A stretch of 64,000 bases of DNA from a virus (IMGVR_UViG_3300010883_000015:1-64000); one strand, 5' to 3'; positions 51,434 through 61,842 are shown, counted from the first letter of the stretch. Notes: generated from the sequence alone by a model not told the origin. Numbers and translations: made by a program.

Positions 51434-52123
51434 ATGTTCACTATAAAAGAAATTTTCGCGACACTTCAAGGTGAAGGATCAAGATCAGGAACTCCTGCGA
51501 TCTTTGTAAGGTTTGCTGGTTGTAACCTATGGTCGGGACAAGATCATCTTCGAGAGAAAGGAAAAGGTCACTGTGCTTTATGGTGTGATACTGATTTTTT
51601 TCGTGGAGATAAATATGAAGGTTCTGAATTATTAAACCGCCTCAATAGATTAACCTCTAAGTGGCAAGATAAGATGGTTGTATTTACAGGGGGAGAGCCT
51701 TGCTTACAATTAAAGAAGCCCGAAGCCGTAGGATTAATTGAAAGATTGCTAAATACAGGATGGGTGGTTGCAATAGAAACAAATGGAACGATATCTGCTG
51801 AAGAGTGTCAAGTGCTAAATATATTAAATGATCACCCGAATGGTCATATTACGGTTAGTCCGAAACCTCTTATGGATAAAAGTAAACGTCACAGTATTGA
51901 GCATATTAAATTAAGATTTGGTACAGATTTAAAAATAATCATCCCAACAGTGTTACCTTTAAATGAATTTCAAGAGTTAAATTTTGAACATTTCTTCTTT
52001 CAACCAATGGATCTACAGGACGGGACTTCTGGATTAAGTTCAGTAGAAGAAACCATTGAATTCTGCATAACTTATGGATGGAGGCTATCTTGCCAAACAC
52101 ACAAATTTCTAAACCTACAATAG
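51434..52123 (+). CDS. queE: 7-carboxy-7-deazaguanine synthase (radical SAM)
   Basis: EIFATLQGEG, FVRFAGCNL..WCDTDF, VFTGGEP, IETNG, TVSPK, WRLSCQTHK. Confidence 0.93.
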   Translation: MFTIKEIFATLQGEGSRSGTPAIFVRFAGCNLWSGQDHLREKGKGHCALWCDTDFFRGDKYEGSELLNRLNRLTSKWQDKMVVFTGGEPCLQLKKPEAVGLIERLLNTGWVVAIETNGTISAEECQVLNILNDHPNGHITVSPKPLMDKSKRHSIEHIKLRFGTDLKIIIPTVLPLNEFQELNFEHFFFQPMDLQDGTSGLSSVEETIEFCITYGWRLSCQTHKFLNLQ

Positions 52124-52674
52124 ATGAAGTAGAAAAAGCATTTAAAACTATATTGAAATATGTAGGCGAAGATCCAGAAAGAGAAGGCTTAAAAGAAACG
52201 CCTAAACGAGTAGCTAGATCATTAAAAGAATGGTTTTCAGGATATGACATAGATCCTAAATCTGTATTATCAACAACGTTTGAAGAAGTTGAAAATTACA
52301 ACGAGATTGTAGTTTTAAGAAATATTAGGCTAGAAAGTCATTGTGAGCATCACATGTGTCCTATTATTGGAACGGCAACGGTAGCTTACTTGCCTAGAAA
52401 TAAAGTTGTAGGAATTTCAAAATTAGCTAGAGTAGTAGATGCATTCGCGAAGCGTTATCAAATTCAAGAAGTTATGACAAAGCAAATAGCAGACACCATA
52501 CAAGAAGTGTTAAATCCTAAAGGTGTTGCAGTTATAATTAAAGCACAGCATTTCTGTATTGGAACAAGGGGAATTCATAAGCATGAAAGTGATATGATTA
52601 CCTCCTGTATGCTTGGTGTATTTATGGAAGATAGCACAGCCAGACTAGAACTTATGCATTTAATAAAAGATTAA
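52078..52674 (+). CDS. folE: GTP cyclohydrolase I
   Basis: REGLKETPKRVA, SHCEHH, GISKLAR, QIQE, HFC. Confidence 0.95.
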   Translation: MEAILPNTQISKPTIDEVEKAFKTILKYVGEDPEREGLKETPKRVARSLKEWFSGYDIDPKSVLSTTFEEVENYNEIVVLRNIRLESHCEHHMCPIIGTATVAYLPRNKVVGISKLARVVDAFAKRYQIQEVMTKQIADTIQEVLNPKGVAVIIKAQHFCIGTRGIHKHESDMITSCMLGVFMEDSTARLELMHLIKD

Positions 52675-52683
52675 GGATACAGT

Positions 52684-53484
52684 ATGCTTTCAGTATTATC
52701 AGCAAGTGGTGGAATGGATAGCACCTCTCTTTTGATGAGACTCTTAGGAGAGGGTCATGAAGTCCATGCTATTTCATTTTATTATGGTCAAACCCATTCT
52801 TTAGAATTGATTAGGCTTAAAGATAATATCACTTATCTTAGTGAAAATGGATACAAAGTAGTTCATAAAGTTATTAATATAAAATCTATCATGTCCTCCT
52901 TTCATAGCGCTCTGACTGGCTTAATTGATATGCCAGAAGGGCATTATGAAGAAGACAACATGAAAGATACTGTTGTTCCGAATAGGAATGCCATTTTTAG
53001 TTCTATCATATATGGTTATGCATTATCAGAAGCAAATAAACGAGGATGTAAAGCACAGGTTGCTCTTGGTGTTCATAGCGGGGATCATGCAATATATCCT
53101 GATTGCAGACCTGAATTCTATGACTATTTATTTATGGCTTTTGATTTTGGAAATTGGAATTCTGAAAGCGTTAAATTGTATCTTCCTTATTTAAACGGAG
53201 ATAAAGAAAGTATTCTAGTAGATGCTATCCATTATTGTAAGAAGTTAAGACTTGATTTTGATACCGTATTTGCGAACACAAACACAGGTTATGATCCAGA
53301 TGAAAAAGGAAGATCTAGCGGGAAAACTGGGGCAGATATAGAGCGCATATTAGCCTTTCACGCTATTGGAAGAACGGATCCGATAGAATATGTGGACGGA
53401 TGGGAAAGTGCCCTAAAGCACGCGATATCAACGCAAGAAAGACATGATACAGATAAAGAACAGCATTCAAATTCAGAGTCTTAA
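52684..53484 (+). CDS. queC: 7-cyano-7-deazaguanine synthase
   Basis: SGGMDST, YGQTH..E, VPNRNAIF, GVHSGDHAIYPDCRP. Confidence 0.92.
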   Translation: MLSVLSASGGMDSTSLLMRLLGEGHEVHAISFYYGQTHSLELIRLKDNITYLSENGYKVVHKVINIKSIMSSFHSALTGLIDMPEGHYEEDNMKDTVVPNRNAIFSSIIYGYALSEANKRGCKAQVALGVHSGDHAIYPDCRPEFYDYLFMAFDFGNWNSESVKLYLPYLNGDKESILVDAIHYCKKLRLDFDTVFANTNTGYDPDEKGRSSGKTGADIERILAFHAIGRTDPIEYVDGWESALKHAISTQERHDTDKEQHSNSES

Positions 53485-53489
53485 TATCC

Positions 53490-59834: not shown

Positions 59835-60462
59835 GGTAATAGAAGAAATAGAAGTAGAAGAAGGTCAAAAAGTAGAAACAGAAAAAGTAGGGGAATGGGT
59901 GCACCTAGATCAATTGGTGGAATGGGATCAGAATCCAAGATTTAACGACCAAGCGATAGATCAAATTGCTGATAGTATAAAAAAGTTTGGTTTTTCTTCT
60001 CCTATAATTGCTAGAAAAGCAGATAACAAAATAATTGCAGGACATACAAGATTTAAGGCTGCTCAGTCCTTAGGTATGCAATTTGTTCCTGTCCGATTTA
60101 TGGACTTGTCAGAAACAGAAGCAAAGGCTCTTGCCCTTGCCGATAACAGGCTCGGAGAGATAGCATCTTGGGACGACGGGCTGTTAGGTGACGTGCTATC
60201 TGAATTAAAGAAAGAAGGCGTAGATATGGACATATTGGGCTTTTCTCAACAAGAAGTCGATCAATTGTTAGGAAATTGGACTGATCCTTTTTGGGATGAA
60301 GATGAACTTAATAGCAGTGAATTAAATGATGACGAAATAGAAGATAATGGTCAATCAATAATCTATATCACCGTAGCTATAAATAGAGCCAAAGATACTA
60401 GTGATCTCATTACAGAATTGCTAAATAGCAACAACATAGAACATACAATTAAATTAAAATAA
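59827..60462 (+). CDS. ParB/Srx N-terminal-domain protein
   Basis: NPR, SIKKFGFSSPII, IIAGHTRFKAA, LADNRLGE. Confidence 0.85.
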   Translation: MPKVIEEIEVEEGQKVETEKVGEWVHLDQLVEWDQNPRFNDQAIDQIADSIKKFGFSSPIIARKADNKIIAGHTRFKAAQSLGMQFVPVRFMDLSETEAKALALADNRLGEIASWDDGLLGDVLSELKKEGVDMDILGFSQQEVDQLLGNWTDPFWDEDELNSSELNDDEIEDNGQSIIYITVAINRAKDTSDLITELLNSNNIEHTIKLK

Positions 60463-60475
60463 AAGGATTTACAAC

Positions 60476-60952
60476 ATGACTGATGATGAAAAATATGAGT
60501 CTCATGGGAATTCTTCGCAATTAAAATCCCTTGGGAATGCCAAAACTAAATACCCAACAACGCCAGACGAGGCAGAGTTAGAGAAAATACCGTGGAAAGG
60601 AGAAGGCTTTAGTTACGTTACTTGGGAATGCCCTGAATATACTTGTGCTTGTCCCAAAACAGGCCAACCTGACTTTGCAACAGTCTATATACAATACATA
60701 CCAGAAGCATATATTGTAGAAAGTAAATCATTGAAAATATATTTATTCTCTTTCCGTAATTATGGTCATTTCCATGAAGTTGGGATTGAAAGAATTGCTA
60801 AAGATATATTTGATTTTATACAACCTAAATTCTTAAGAGTAGTTGGAGACTTCAATAAGAGAGGAGGGATATCAATTGTCCCTATTTCAGAATTTGGAGA
60901 TCTTTCTTTATCTAGCTCTATACCTATTCCTAAAATAACATATGGCTCTTAA
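60476..60952 (+). CDS. queF: preQ0 nitrile reductase, type I
   Basis: CPKTGQPDFA catalytic Cys/Asp, QueF motif ESKSLKIY, FHE, RGGI. Confidence 0.9.
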   Translation: MTDDEKYESHGNSSQLKSLGNAKTKYPTTPDEAELEKIPWKGEGFSYVTWECPEYTCACPKTGQPDFATVYIQYIPEAYIVESKSLKIYLFSFRNYGHFHEVGIERIAKDIFDFIQPKFLRVVGDFNKRGGISIVPISEFGDLSLSSSIPIPKITYGS

Positions 60953-61842
60953 TGCCTATTAAATTCCATAATTTAGTTTCTTTTGCATTATTTGGAGATC
61001 GAATTAATGAAGGCTTGCATCCAGAATGGAATACTATGTTGGATAGCGGGGGATTTACAAACTTTGTAAGAGGTAAAGATATTGTTACCTTGAAAGATTA
61101 TTGTATGTATCTTAAAACCGAAAAGGTAAGGTTTTGGGAATATATGGCTCTCGACCGAATTGGGGATAAAAAGATCAGCGGGGAGTATCTTAATAAAATG
61201 ATAAGCGTCGGTCTTGCTCCTGTTCCAATTTATCAGAGAGGAGAAGGAAGTGCCAAAGAATTAACTAAGATGATAGAAGCAAATAGATTAATTGCTATTG
61301 GTGGAATCTCTCAAAACCTTTCAGCCAAAGCCGAGCAAGAGTACCTTCGTAACGTAATGAGGGTGGTAAGAAAAGTTCCGACTGCAAAGGTTCATCTTCT
61401 TGGGGTAGGTGTTAGAGAAGCCAAGCTATATTGCCCTTATAGTTCAGATAGTAGCACTTGGGCTAGTCATTTTAGATTTGGGATTATTCGTCTTTGGCAT
61501 CAAGGTAAATTGTTAGACTTCCAAAAACATAAGACTGCTCAACACGCCAAGAGATATGTTAGGCCGAATCCAAATTACACACGATGTTTAGCTAAATATA
61601 GCCTGACTTGGAATGATCTATATGATAATGCCGATTGGTCTAAGCCTGAAAGTAAATTAAGCATAGCAGCAACTAGGTCTTGGATAAGGCAATCTAGGTC
61701 TTTGTATCGAAAAGATAGCAGATATTTATTAGCAAGTTTACCAATAAATGTTCAAGCGATTAAAGAGGCTTGGAATTATGAAAGAATTTCATGGGGTTGG
61801 CCTAAGTCTAAATTCATAAGTATACCATCTGAAAAGAAATAA
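60952..61842 (+). CDS. TGT-fold DNA 7-deazaguanine transglycosylase (DpdA-like)
   Basis: MLDSGGFT, LDRIGD, PVPIYQ, IAIGG, KVHLLG, SSDSSTW; coupled to queF. Confidence 0.75.
   Translation: MPIKFHNLVSFALFGDRINEGLHPEWNTMLDSGGFTNFVRGKDIVTLKDYCMYLKTEKVRFWEYMALDRIGDKKISGEYLNKMISVGLAPVPIYQRGEGSAKELTKMIEANRLIAIGGISQNLSAKAEQEYLRNVMRVVRKVPTAKVHLLGVGVREAKLYCPYSSDSSTWASHFRFGIIRLWHQGKLLDFQKHKTAQHAKRYVRPNPNYTRCLAKYSLTWNDLYDNADWSKPESKLSIAATRSWIRQSRSLYRKDSRYLLASLPINVQAIKEAWNYERISWGWPKSKFISIPSEKK

Follow-up and report, generated by a model that had tools for sequence, protein, structure and literature searches.

The region between positions 51434 and 61842 of the window (the 64 000-nucleotide stretch analysed here, from the complete 80.7 kb genome of an uncultured marine phage) is very probably a dPreQ1 DNA-modification module into which a horizontally acquired KDN-like nonulosonate glycan module has been inserted, the two being functionally independent. 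The que and sugar modules travel separately in the phages compared, which makes a sugar-decorated DNA base unlikely.

Organization of the locus

ORF calling and profile searches found all of the genes of the cluster where the first-pass annotation had placed them, all on the + strand. Profile matches and coordinates also bear out its order of queE–folE–queC, eight sugar genes and then queD, ParB, queF and a TGT-like gene. In full, queE–folE–queC are followed by genes for a cupin/PMI, a CMP-transferase, NeuB, a pyruvyl-transferase-like protein, two methyltransferases, an HAD phosphatase and a mini Maf/CstII-like transferase, 3' of which lie the QueD-like gene, a small ORF and the ParB-like, QueF and DpdA-like genes. 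The gene identities established here are as follows.

51434–52123, + strand: QueE, 7-carboxy-7-deazaguanine synthase, radical SAM (TIGR04508 queE_Cx14CxxC, E 2.4e-46, 158 bits, below the cut-off of 240; weak PF04055 match)
52078–52674, + strand: FolE, GTP cyclohydrolase I (PF01227, 245 bits; TIGR00063, 225.5 bits, above the cut-off of 181.6)
52684–53484, + strand: QueC, 7-cyano-7-deazaguanine synthase (PF06508, 117 bits; TIGR00364, 106 bits, below cut-off)
53490–53828, + strand: cupin, like the C-terminal domain of mannose-6-phosphate isomerase (PF01050, E 5e-9; PF07883; C-terminal part of TIGR01479)
53809–54486, + strand: CMP-nonulosonate synthetase, a cytidylyltransferase (PF02348, 33 bits, above the cut-off of 22.6; PseF, E 1e-8)
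54449–55273, + strand: NeuB-family nonulosonate synthase, 274 aa (PF03102, 209 bits; PDB matches PseI 8h2c, SpsE and NeuB)
55275–56288, + strand: polysaccharide pyruvyl-transferase-fold protein (PF04230, 22.6 bits, just under cut-off)
56275–56949, + strand: MT1, class I SAM methyltransferase, small-molecule type (PF13489, PF08241, PF08242)
56942–57622, + strand: MT2, probable methyltransferase (weak PF13489 match, E 0.002)
57751–58080, + strand: small HAD phosphatase with a DxDxT motif (phrog_1238, E 3e-27; TIGR01689 capsule biosynthesis phosphatase; PDB 9iqw, E 1.6e-11)
58043–58741, + strand: mini Maf/CstII-like (MptE-like) CMP-nonulosonate transferase, 232 aa, pI 6.4 (PF01973, E 9e-6; phrog_4603, annotated as sialyltransferase)
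58778–58951, + strand: basic 57-aa ORF with no assigned function (ORF list; AT-rich 150-nt gap downstream)
59102–59560, + strand: QueD-like T-fold protein, PTPS family (PF01242, 50.7 bits; TIGR03367, 30 bits, below cut-off)
59472–59834, + strand: small ORF with a hydrophobic C-terminus (tblastn, 40–44% identity in loci L001 and L043, 90% in L028)
59827–60462, + strand: stand-alone ParB_N protein, pI 4.3 (PF02195, E 1e-11; phrog_620, E 3e-46)
60476–60952, + strand: QueF, preQ0 reductase (preQ1 synthase), unimodular (TIGR03139, 128.9 bits, above the cut-off of 86.9; PF14489, 102 bits)
60952–61842, + strand: DpdA-like DNA guanine transglycosylase, divergent subfamily, pI 9.8 (phrog_887, E 7e-20)

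The eight sugar genes occupy positions 53490–58741, the first starting 5 nt past the queC stop, and at five of their seven internal junctions neighbouring genes overlap or have 1 nt between them. To this extent the cassette is the mostly overlapping unit that had been described, but it is not part of a seamless one: the region consists of three tight blocks divided by gaps of 128 nt (57623–57750, within the sugar genes) and 150 nt, and the sequence of the latter holds an RBS upstream of the queD-like gene. The first-pass annotation had seen in co-transcription a hint of a functional link. Same-strand gaps throughout this genome have a median of 9 nt, however, and 53% of them are ≤10 nt; with packing this tight, the 5-nt queC–cupin spacing is no better than chance and is uninformative. 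The cassette would lie on a shared transcript solely because the phage packs all of its genes head to tail.

The GC content of the cassette is 28.8%, compared with 35.4% for the que genes. This difference is also what might be seen in an assembly chimera joining a phage with a NeuB cassette to a phage with a que cluster, as is the position of an independent contig (L028), 98.8% identical, that begins at 58940, near the right-hand junction. The Logan contigs of the sole run holding the stretch are, moreover, fragmented and skip a low-complexity segment at 58774–58817. Nevertheless, a 997-nt Logan contig from this run, which is possibly the source sample, spans 52890–53886 across queC and the cupin gene without differences, so that the left junction is not an assembly chimera; the reading frames there are tightly coupled. 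Logan coverage is similar in all bins from 51000 to 62500 (depth of about 4–10) and the genome is rated 100% complete. The probability of a chimera is close to negligible.

The predicted dPreQ1 module

The proposal of a preQ1 DNA-modification operon was upheld by the identification of FolE, QueE, QueC, QueF, a QueD-like protein and a DpdA-type transglycosylase, a gene set that predicts dPreQ1 in the phage DNA. The cysteine spacing in QueE is C30-x16-C47-x3-C51. QueC has the SGGMDS motif and is missing the C-terminal CxxCxxC zinc motif; its closest cultured match comes, at 42% identity, from the QueC of the fdPreQ1 phage immuto of Flavobacterium, in which QueC is likewise isolated among unrelated neighbours. 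QueF contains the motifs CPKTGQPD and ESKSLKIY and passes the TIGR03139 preQ1 synthase cut-off. The queD call was partly sustained: a PTPS-family gene is in place, but alignment to solved PTPS/QueD structures has CKFMHGY replacing the QueD signature CxxxHGH. This CxxxHGY variant is kept in 10 related loci. The small ORF is kept between queC and ParB in relatives, and its real start is probably inside the listed ORF.

The DpdA-like protein has no match in Pfam, NCBIfam or PADLOC, and a search of 50,697 deposited phage records gave a sole, partial match at 28% (Paenibacillus phage PG1, two accessions). Its fold is shown by the AF2 model (pLDDT of 84), for which the top PDB match is the DNA preQ0 insertase DpdA (7ui4), with TGTs next. 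Across 14 homologues, D31-S-G-G and D166-S-S do not vary. The ParB-like protein has the motif GHTRFKAA, corresponding to GxxRxxA, and in PADLOC it matches a type II MTase model over the N-terminal part only. In 20 of 55 loci a ParB-like gene precedes dpdA by ≤400 nt, and the protein may be a DpdA accessory factor. The pairing of ParB and DpdA is conserved.

The module (FolE, QueD-like, QueE, QueC, QueF, ParB-like and DpdA-like) would convert GTP to preQ0, which QueF would then reduce to preQ1. The DpdA-type transglycosylase would swap guanine in the phage DNA for the deazaguanine base, probably aided by its ParB-fold neighbour, and the expected product, dPreQ1, would shield the DNA against host nucleases. 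The same combination of FolE, QueD, QueE, QueC and QueF with a DpdA-type transglycosylase occurs in the dPreQ1 systems of Streptococcus phage Dp-1, Halovirus HVTV-1 and Vibrio phage VH7D (DpdA2) (PMC6884629, PMC10516641), and the present QueF shares 52% identity with its Dp-1 counterpart. The differences from these phages are the DpdA-like protein that escapes the profile libraries, the variant QueD-like signature and the stand-alone ParB-fold gene before dpdA; the product here is predicted from the genes.

The adjoining genes for a TGT-fold DNA transglycosylase and a ParB-superfamily protein resemble the DpdA/DpdB pair of the bacterial Dpd system, in which the ParB-like ATPase DpdB is needed for DpdA activity (PMC10164549). 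Unlike bacterial DpdB, the phage protein has 211 aa and the classical GxxRxxA motif rather than DGQQR, and PADLOC matched neither DpdB nor DpdA in the phage. The phage is also without dpdC–K, and its expected base is preQ1, not preQ0 or ADG.

The nonulosonate module

As first described, a nonulosonate cassette splits the que cluster: a self-contained KDN-like gene set lies between queC and the QueD-like gene. NeuB shares 59–76% identity with the NeuB proteins of 24 IMG/VR contigs and 44–47% with those of three remoter ones. The SAF domain at the C-terminus is missing, as matches to TIGR03569 and TIGR03586 stop at about model position 258 of 329. The PDB matches of the CMP-nonulosonate synthetase are the CMP-Neu5Ac synthetases 6ifd and 1eyr. 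The HAD phosphatase gene, which adjoins NeuB in most cassette loci, may encode the nonulosonate-9-phosphate phosphatase, and the cupin would supply Man-6-P. As for the Neu5Ac, Pse and Leg routes, profile and structure searches of the region gave neither a NeuC nor any of their aminotransferases, dehydratases or acetyltransferases.

One example of a KDN pathway is that of Bacteroides thetaiotaomicron. In another, that of Prymnesium parvum, Man-6-P and PEP give KDN-9-P, then KDN and CMP-KDN (PMC6200933). The cassette resembles this pathway in its NeuB-family synthase, small HAD phosphatase, CMP-transferase and PMI-type cupin, with no enzymes specific to Neu5Ac, Pse or Leg. It differs in the missing SAF domain, in NeuB scores that put pseudaminate and Neu5Ac synthases of the PDB slightly ahead, and in the addition of a pyruvyl-transferase-like protein and two methyltransferases. 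The Atlas structure of the former matches PS_pyruv_trans domains with a TM of 0.87, in viral clusters, and orthologues with 46–58% identity are found in 10 Maf-bearing loci. MT1 matches no DNA-methylase family, and neither MT1 nor MT2 has a homologue across 183 comparison loci.

The Maf-like transferase was modelled with AF2 at a pLDDT of 91. Its best structural matches are Maf (5mu5), a sialyltransferase of P. multocida (9c08) and CstII/CstI, with a Foldseek probability of 1.0 to 5mu5 and CstII/CstI. It shares with Maf and GT42 the PF01973 core and the linkage to NeuB and CMP-transferase genes, at a sequence identity of 12–18%. Unlike Maf it has 232 aa rather than about 600, without flagellin-binding or TPR-like extensions. 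The family comprises 523 clusters; in long proteins the domain is joined to polysaccharide GT domains (RgpF, GT4 and CST-I), often so in cells.

The horizontally mobile module (cupin/PMI, NeuB, HAD phosphatase, CMP-transferase, pyruvyl-transferase-like protein, two methyltransferases and mini Maf/CstII-like transferase) would make a CMP-activated nonulosonic acid, probably a KDN-like one without an amino group, that may also be O-methylated or pyruvylated. The sugar would then be passed to a hydroxyl of a glycan or protein, either of the host envelope or of the virion, the acceptor of the Maf-like enzyme probably being a sugar or protein hydroxyl.

Distribution of the two modules in other phages

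About 180 related loci were compared, among them 71 dpdA-type, 26 neuB and 80 Maf-like loci. Cassette genes are present in none of the dpdA-type loci (576 kb), 52 of which contain que genes. Conversely, que or dpdA genes are found in none of the neuB loci (436 kb) or Maf-like loci (1.11 Mb), the latter including neuB in 28, CMPtr in 26, HAD in 24, pyrT in 10 and cupin in nine. QueC did not exceed the cut-off in any of 44 whole cassette-bearing records, of which five are 96–100% complete and most are incomplete; these QueC-free records include ones of 203 and 293 kb with terminal repeats and one of 175 kb (96% complete). A 299-kb genome that is 100% complete has cupin–Maf–CMPtr–NeuB–HAD without QueC. 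Of these 44 records, 26 were also searched with the A2 DpdA model, which matched none of them and, as a positive control, matched L001 at 4e-152. The co-occurrence of neuAB–Maf with que/dpdA raised in the first-pass annotation was thus absent from all 71 dpdA loci, all 106 neuB or Maf loci and, as judged by QueC, all 44 records.

The nearest relatives are without the cassette. In L001/L029 (primase-helicase 58% identical) the primase-helicase, queE, folE, queC, small ORF, ParB, queF and dpdA are uninterrupted, and L043 shares this order, likewise free of sugar genes, up to queF at the contig end. The uninterrupted cluster is known from two short relative contigs only (15 and 6.4 kb), the lineage being poorly sampled. 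The cassette appears to have landed between queC and the remaining que cluster, as the first-pass annotation had allowed in its alternative reading of simple insertion. The other part of that reading, virion glycosylation through the structural GT, did not gain support: this GT is missing from 25 cassette-bearing records in a search without a positive control.

The first-pass annotation had put forward a possible sugar-hypermodified 7-deazaguanine. To form it, the Maf-like enzyme would attach the nonulosonate from its CMP donor, bare or bearing methyl or pyruvate groups, at the aminomethyl group that dPreQ1 carries in the phage DNA. The cassette does sit inside the que cluster, 5 nt past queC, and a convincing terminator was not found; dPreQ1 is, furthermore, known to be derivatised to methyl and formyl forms (PMC10516641). 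Sugar-activation genes also adjoin base-modification genes in phage DNA glycosylation (T4 alpha/beta-GT; 5hmC glycans, bioRxiv 10.1101/2023.12.21.572611), and nucleotide-sugar synthesis and DNA glycosyltransferase genes lie beside those for base-modifying enzymes for arabinosyl-5-hydroxycytosine in RB69 and DLP3 (PMC13326640). Neither of these two reports mentions nonulosonates or deazaguanines. Such systems rely on UDP-sugars, DNA GTs of the GT-B type and a base hydroxyl and are syntenic across relatives, RB69 and DLP3 included, whereas here the donor is a CMP-ketoacid sugar, the base is without a hydroxyl and the sugar genes are not co-conserved with the base-modification genes. The transferase family is instead tied to NeuB, CMPtr and HAD and fused to polysaccharide GTs, and the present member is mildly acidic, with the DpdA-like protein far more basic. 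GT42/Maf-type enzymes form O-ketosides on hydroxyl acceptors. PreQ1 presents only a primary amine, and profile searches of the region gave neither an ATP-grasp enzyme nor a ligase that could form an amide link. With the cassette segregating from the que genes, and the 5-nt spacing carrying no weight, we regard this decorated base as extremely unlikely. Although the modules are independent in other phages, the cassette could have been put to a new use in the present one.

The cassette is common among uncultured marine phages and in other phages sits in glycan islands. In L008 it lies within a 15-kb island with two GT4, GT2, DegT, WbqC, TauD, a TylF-type MT and RmlB/C/D. A further possibility is that the sugar genes are independent and that MT1 and/or MT2 methylate preQ1 or dPreQ1, giving an mdPreQ1-like base by a non-DpdM route. 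Within the cassette, the genes for MT1 and MT2 alone are without a homologue in other neuB/Maf cassette loci, mdPreQ1 occurs in nature (PMC10516641), and DpdM, the known dPreQ1 methylase and a DUF3109 protein (PMC10516641), was not found in the phage genome. DpdM is unrelated to the Rossmann-type MT1 and MT2. We consider such methylation very unlikely, as MT1 and MT2 are missing from all 71 dpdA loci, including four others with queF, and their Pfam matches are to small-molecule MT families, not nucleic-acid MTases. Their genes overlap the pyruvyl-transferase-like gene and one another within the cassette, and in L008 the equivalent position is taken by enzymes of sugar tailoring, O-methyltransferases of the TylF and Methyltransf_24 types among them. 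The GC contents of MT1 and MT2 are the lowest in the region (22.9% for MT2, the minimum), which fits arrival along with the cassette.

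Genomic setting and gene layout

The window covers the opening 64 kb of one viral contig of 80,695 nt, the CheckV completeness of which is 100%. The + strand carries about 86 of 100 crude ORF calls, among them an uninterrupted run that begins at 51.4 kb and lasts to the contig end. ORF listing and profile searches recovered every gene named in the first-pass annotation, and the 5-nt gap between queC and the cupin gene and the gene overlaps are as described there.

Features of the que cluster, the sugar cassette and the preceding gene
49227-51137, primase-helicase with Pfam DnaB_C and Toprim domains
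51434-52123, +, queE (TIGR04508, E = 2e-46)
52078-52674, +, folE (PF01227, 245 bits)
52684-53484, +, queC (PF06508, 117 bits)
53490-53828, +, cassette gene 1, PMI-type cupin
53809-54486, +, cassette gene 2, CMP-transferase (PF02348, 33 bits)
54449-55273, +, NeuB (PF03102, 209 bits), 274 aa, without a SAF domain
55275-56288, +, pyruvyl-transferase-fold protein (Atlas TM 0.87 to PS_pyruv_trans domains)
56275-57622, +, cassette genes 5 and 6, Rossmann methyltransferases MT1 and MT2
57751-58080, +, cassette gene 7, small HAD phosphatase
58043-58741, +, cassette gene 8, MptE/Maf-like protein of 232 aa
58778-58951, +, 57-aa ORF from the ORF list
59102-59560, +, QueD-like protein of the PTPS family
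59472-59834, +, small ORF with a hydrophobic tail, conserved in relatives
59827-60462, +, ParB_N protein (PF02195)
60476-60952, +, QueF, over the preQ1-synthase cut-off (CPKTGQPD, ESKSLKIY)
60952-61842, +, DpdA-like protein (phrog_887), fold nearest to DpdA 7ui4

Two spacers, 128 nt and 150 nt long, divide the region into three tight blocks, and a promoter-like site together with a good RBS lies ahead of queD. Scanning for promoters and terminators returned counts equal to the shuffled expectation and the scan is therefore uninformative, either way, on co-transcription. Adjacency is weak evidence here because same-strand gaps are equally short genome-wide (median of 9 nt, with 53% at 10 nt or less); unrelated genes in this genome stand just as close to each other as queC and the cupin gene do. 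The stretch 52890-53886 is spanned with zero differences by a Logan contig of a public run, and the left junction is therefore not a chimera. None of the listed Logan contigs bridges the right-hand junction (58.74-59.10 kb). Four read joints, for example 51332 to 59838, were disregarded, their sides being just 20-24 letters long. The start of the 57-aa ORF (58774-58817) is low-complexity and A/T-rich, and repeats there were skipped in read placement. L028, an independent contig that is 98.8% identical to the window, starts at 58940, near the right-hand edge of the cassette; strains might vary at this place. The 128-nt gap between the MT2 and HAD genes (57623-57750) holds an imperfect inverted repeat, TCTCTTCTACTTCTT ... 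AGGAAGCAAGAGA, without a T-run; it could be a structured RNA element within the cassette. No deposited phage matched the region by megablast.

A predicted, divergent preQ1 DNA-modification system

The proposal that this phage places preQ1 in its DNA, a prediction from sequence, is well supported by the fold and motifs of the DpdA-like protein, by the QueF score and by the accompanying que genes. FolE, the QueD-like protein, QueE and QueC would make preQ0, QueF would convert it to preQ1, and the DpdA-like enzyme would exchange guanine in phage DNA for preQ1. FolE scores above the curated cut-off of its model; QueE (E = 2e-46) and QueC (PF06508, 117 bits) plainly belong to their families but stay below the NCBIfam equivalog cut-offs, and QueC is without the CxxCxxC zinc motif. 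QueF reaches 128.9 bits against a TIGR03139 cut-off of 86.9 and carries the motifs CPKTGQPD and ESKSLKIY, in agreement with its earlier assignment as a nitrile reductase rather than QueF-L. The nearest characterized dPreQ1 phages are Dp-1, HVTV-1 and VH7D (PMC6884629, PMC10516641). In Flavobacterium phage immuto, which has formyl-dPreQ1, QueC likewise stands alone amid unrelated genes.

The QueD-like protein is a clade-specific variant without two of the expected zinc-binding histidines: CKFMHGY replaces the signature CxxxHGH, and the sequence FRQW places Phe at the expected site of the first zinc-binding His. The CxxxHGY form, encoded in the window at 59102-59560, is kept in 10 loci of this DpdA clade (L028, L031, L038-L040, L042, L046, L047, L049 and L084), and distant loci retain HGH. 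The que cluster of the nearest relatives, L001 (the same as L029) and L043, is without a QueD-like gene.

The DpdA-like protein matches phrog_887 (E = 7e-20) and has no match in Pfam, NCBIfam, PADLOC or PDB sequences; the missing Pfam, NCBIfam and PADLOC matches point to a divergent subfamily. An AlphaFold (AF2) model built from a 14-sequence alignment (pLDDT of 84) was compared with known structures using Foldseek, and the best match was the DNA preQ0 insertase DpdA (7ui4), followed by tRNA-guanine transglycosylases (TM 0.45-0.56). The catalytic Asp motifs DSGG and DSS are invariant across the 14 homologues. The protein may represent a further DpdA subfamily beside DpdA1-4. Its homologues P0003 and P0013, which are 67% and 51% identical, lie on 65-kb contigs. 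The family is small, with just 16 clusters at comparable length among 5.8 billion proteins, and the sole match among deposited phages is a partial one at 28% to Paenibacillus phage PG1.

A stand-alone gene for a ParB N-terminal domain lies within 400 nt upstream of dpdA in 20 of the 55 loci with enough upstream sequence (L033, L035, L036, L038-L042, L044-L046, L050-L052, L055, L057, L060 and others). In bacteria, the ParB-like ATPase DpdB is needed for DpdA activity (PMC10164549). From this recurrence and the bacterial requirement, we infer that the ParB-like protein acts as a helper of the DpdA-like enzyme, similar to DpdB; its position upstream of this DpdA clade suggests that phage DpdAs may need an NTPase partner, as in the bacterial DpdA/DpdB pair. 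The word ParB is absent from the two principal papers on phage 7-deazaguanines. DpdB of the Dpd system has a DGQQR motif, whereas the ParB-like protein of the window has GHTRFKAA instead. PADLOC matched neither DpdA nor DpdB in the window, and its matches to the ParB-like protein are solely to the N-terminal domain of ParB-MTase fusions. The protein may therefore work like DpdB, yet it is not a member of the DpdB family.

Downstream of dpdA, the 209-nt gap holds two tandem copies (about 61970-62045) of an AT-rich unit of roughly 34 nt; the unit ends in GACCCTATGAA, and the copies immediately precede the RBS of the following ORF. A sigma-70-like site (11/12) is found in the same gap at 61877-61904.

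A nonulosonate synthesis-and-transfer cassette

NeuB, a CMP-transferase and a CMP-nonulosonate-dependent transferase are encoded together, as expected of a cassette for nonulosonate synthesis and transfer. The model of the Maf-like protein (pLDDT of 91) matches Maf (5mu5), a Pasteurella sialyltransferase and CstII/CstI in fold. Taken with the fold matches of the DpdA-like protein, this bears out the expectation of one enzyme for DNA base exchange and one for CMP-nonulosonate transfer in the region.

Read most economically, the cupin would convert fructose-6-P to Man-6-P, NeuB would condense Man-6-P with PEP to give a nonulosonate-9-P, the HAD phosphatase would release the free sugar, the cytidylyltransferase would form the CMP-sugar and the Maf-like enzyme would move the sugar onto a putative acceptor. 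The PMI-type cupin and the small HAD phosphatase are present in the cassette. The tentative assignment of the sugar as KDN is based on the absence of amino-sugar enzymes; the best PDB matches of NeuB are Pse and Neu5Ac synthases. Tailoring would fall to MT1, MT2 and the pyruvyl-transferase-like protein. The GC content of the cassette (28.8%, with MT2 at 22.9%) is below that of the que genes (35.4%), which fits a separate origin.

The trio of NeuB, CMP-transferase and Maf-like genes occurs together in about 26-28 of 80 viral loci. In L008, the cassette orthologues lie in a 15-kb island adjoining phoH that also encodes two GT4s, a GT2, a DegT aminotransferase, WbqC, TauD, Methyltransf_24 and TylF O-methyltransferases and RmlB/C/D. 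What lies between the pyruvyl-transferase-like and HAD genes varies, and MT1 and MT2, which occupy this slot in the window, have a homologue in none of the comparison loci. The Maf-like family comprises 523 clusters at 50% identity, and its domain is often part of proteins of 800-1800 aa with RgpF, GT4 or CST-I domains, that is, of polysaccharide builders. This mini Maf-like domain of 220 aa (P0028, P0037, P0049, P0084 and others) is common among viruses, with 207 IMG/VR stretches, and had no match among deposited phage records, cultured or uncultured.

The cassette and the que genes do not travel together

The first-pass annotation had proposed that preQ1 in the DNA could be methylated or decorated with a sugar by the cassette, and that co-occurrence of the two gene sets across related phages would bear on this. 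The outcome was negative in all four comparisons. L001, the primase-helicase of which is 58% identical to that of the window, has the order primase-helicase, queE, folE, queC, small ORF, ParB, queF and dpdA, with neither a sugar gene nor a QueD-like gene between; L043 keeps this order up to queF, where the contig ends. Primase-helicase scans returned as sole relative the one already known. In 71 metagenome loci with relatives of the window DpdA (576 kb in total), que genes were present in 52 and cassette genes in none. Conversely, 26 IMG/VR loci with NeuB (44-76% identical) and 80 with a Maf-like gene, together 1.5 Mb, were searched for queE, folE, queC, queD, queF and dpdA, and none of the 106 had any of them; the companions of the Maf-like gene in the 80 loci were neuB (28), CMP-transferase (26), HAD (24), pyruvyl-transferase-like (10) and cupin (9) genes.

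Whole cassette-bearing viral records gave the same picture: QueC exceeded its cut-off in 0 of 44, and the DpdA model matched none of a subset of 26, with L001 as positive control at 4e-152. Among the searched records are two genomes with terminal repeats (203 and 293 kb), a 175-kb genome at 96% completeness and the 299-kb genome G038 (100% complete), which carries cupin-Maf-CMP-transferase-NeuB-HAD. The 203-, 293- and 175-kb genomes bear NeuB without a Maf-like gene and so inform the independence of NeuB and que genes only; G038 covers Maf. In phage DNA glycosylation systems, sugar and base-modifying genes are conserved together across relatives, which is not so for the window.

The idea of a sugar on the DNA thus fails the comparative test, and the probability left to it is very small. 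It could still hold if the cassette had been recruited to DNA in this phage alone, with the Maf-like enzyme adding a KDN-like nonulosonate to dPreQ1, or MT1 or MT2 a methyl group, and this would be a 7-deazaguanine hypermodification of a never-described kind. The evidence strongly lowers this reading, which we regard as highly unlikely. Enzymes of the GT42/Maf type build O-ketosides on hydroxyl groups; preQ1 presents a primary amine instead, and a ligase that could make an amide link was not found in the region. The pI of the Maf-like protein, a weak proxy for DNA binding, is 6.4 compared with 9.8 for the DpdA-like protein. As for methylation, the sole validated dPreQ1 methylase, DpdM, is a DUF3109 (YkgJ-like) metalloprotein (PMC10516641); PF11307 is absent from the complete phage genome, and MT1 and MT2 are Rossmann class I methyltransferases unrelated to DpdM. 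Literature searches turned up no direct precedent for either a nonulosonate pathway in a phage or a deazaguanine bearing a sugar.

A deazaguanine carrying a nonulosonate would have added a new class of DNA base. The comparison shows that the proximity of genes in so densely packed a phage genome is no evidence for it, and spares a costly chemical search. What the locus adds instead is a new and divergent example of system types already known. Its DpdA subfamily, itself divergent, comes with a predicted preQ1 pathway in an uncultured marine phage and widens the range of 7-deazaguanine DNA modification, and the compact nonulosonate cassette with its mini Maf-like enzyme is found in many uncultured marine phages (IMG/VR).

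Other sugar-related genes

A second sugar locus lies amid the structural genes (15334-16765 and 18932-21793). It includes a dUTPase gene, a dTDP-glucose-4,6-dehydratase-like gene (RmlB-like; TIGR01181, 244 bits) and a gene for a 953-aa protein with a weak GT2 match. Co-travel of the cassette with this structural glycosyltransferase, also suggested earlier, was not borne out, as the GT2-like protein was not found in 25 cassette-bearing records in a search run without a positive control. Upstream of the major capsid gene lies a 1104-aa ORF (9478-12792) whose residues 108-189 form a PAP2 phosphatase domain (PF01569, E = 4e-11).
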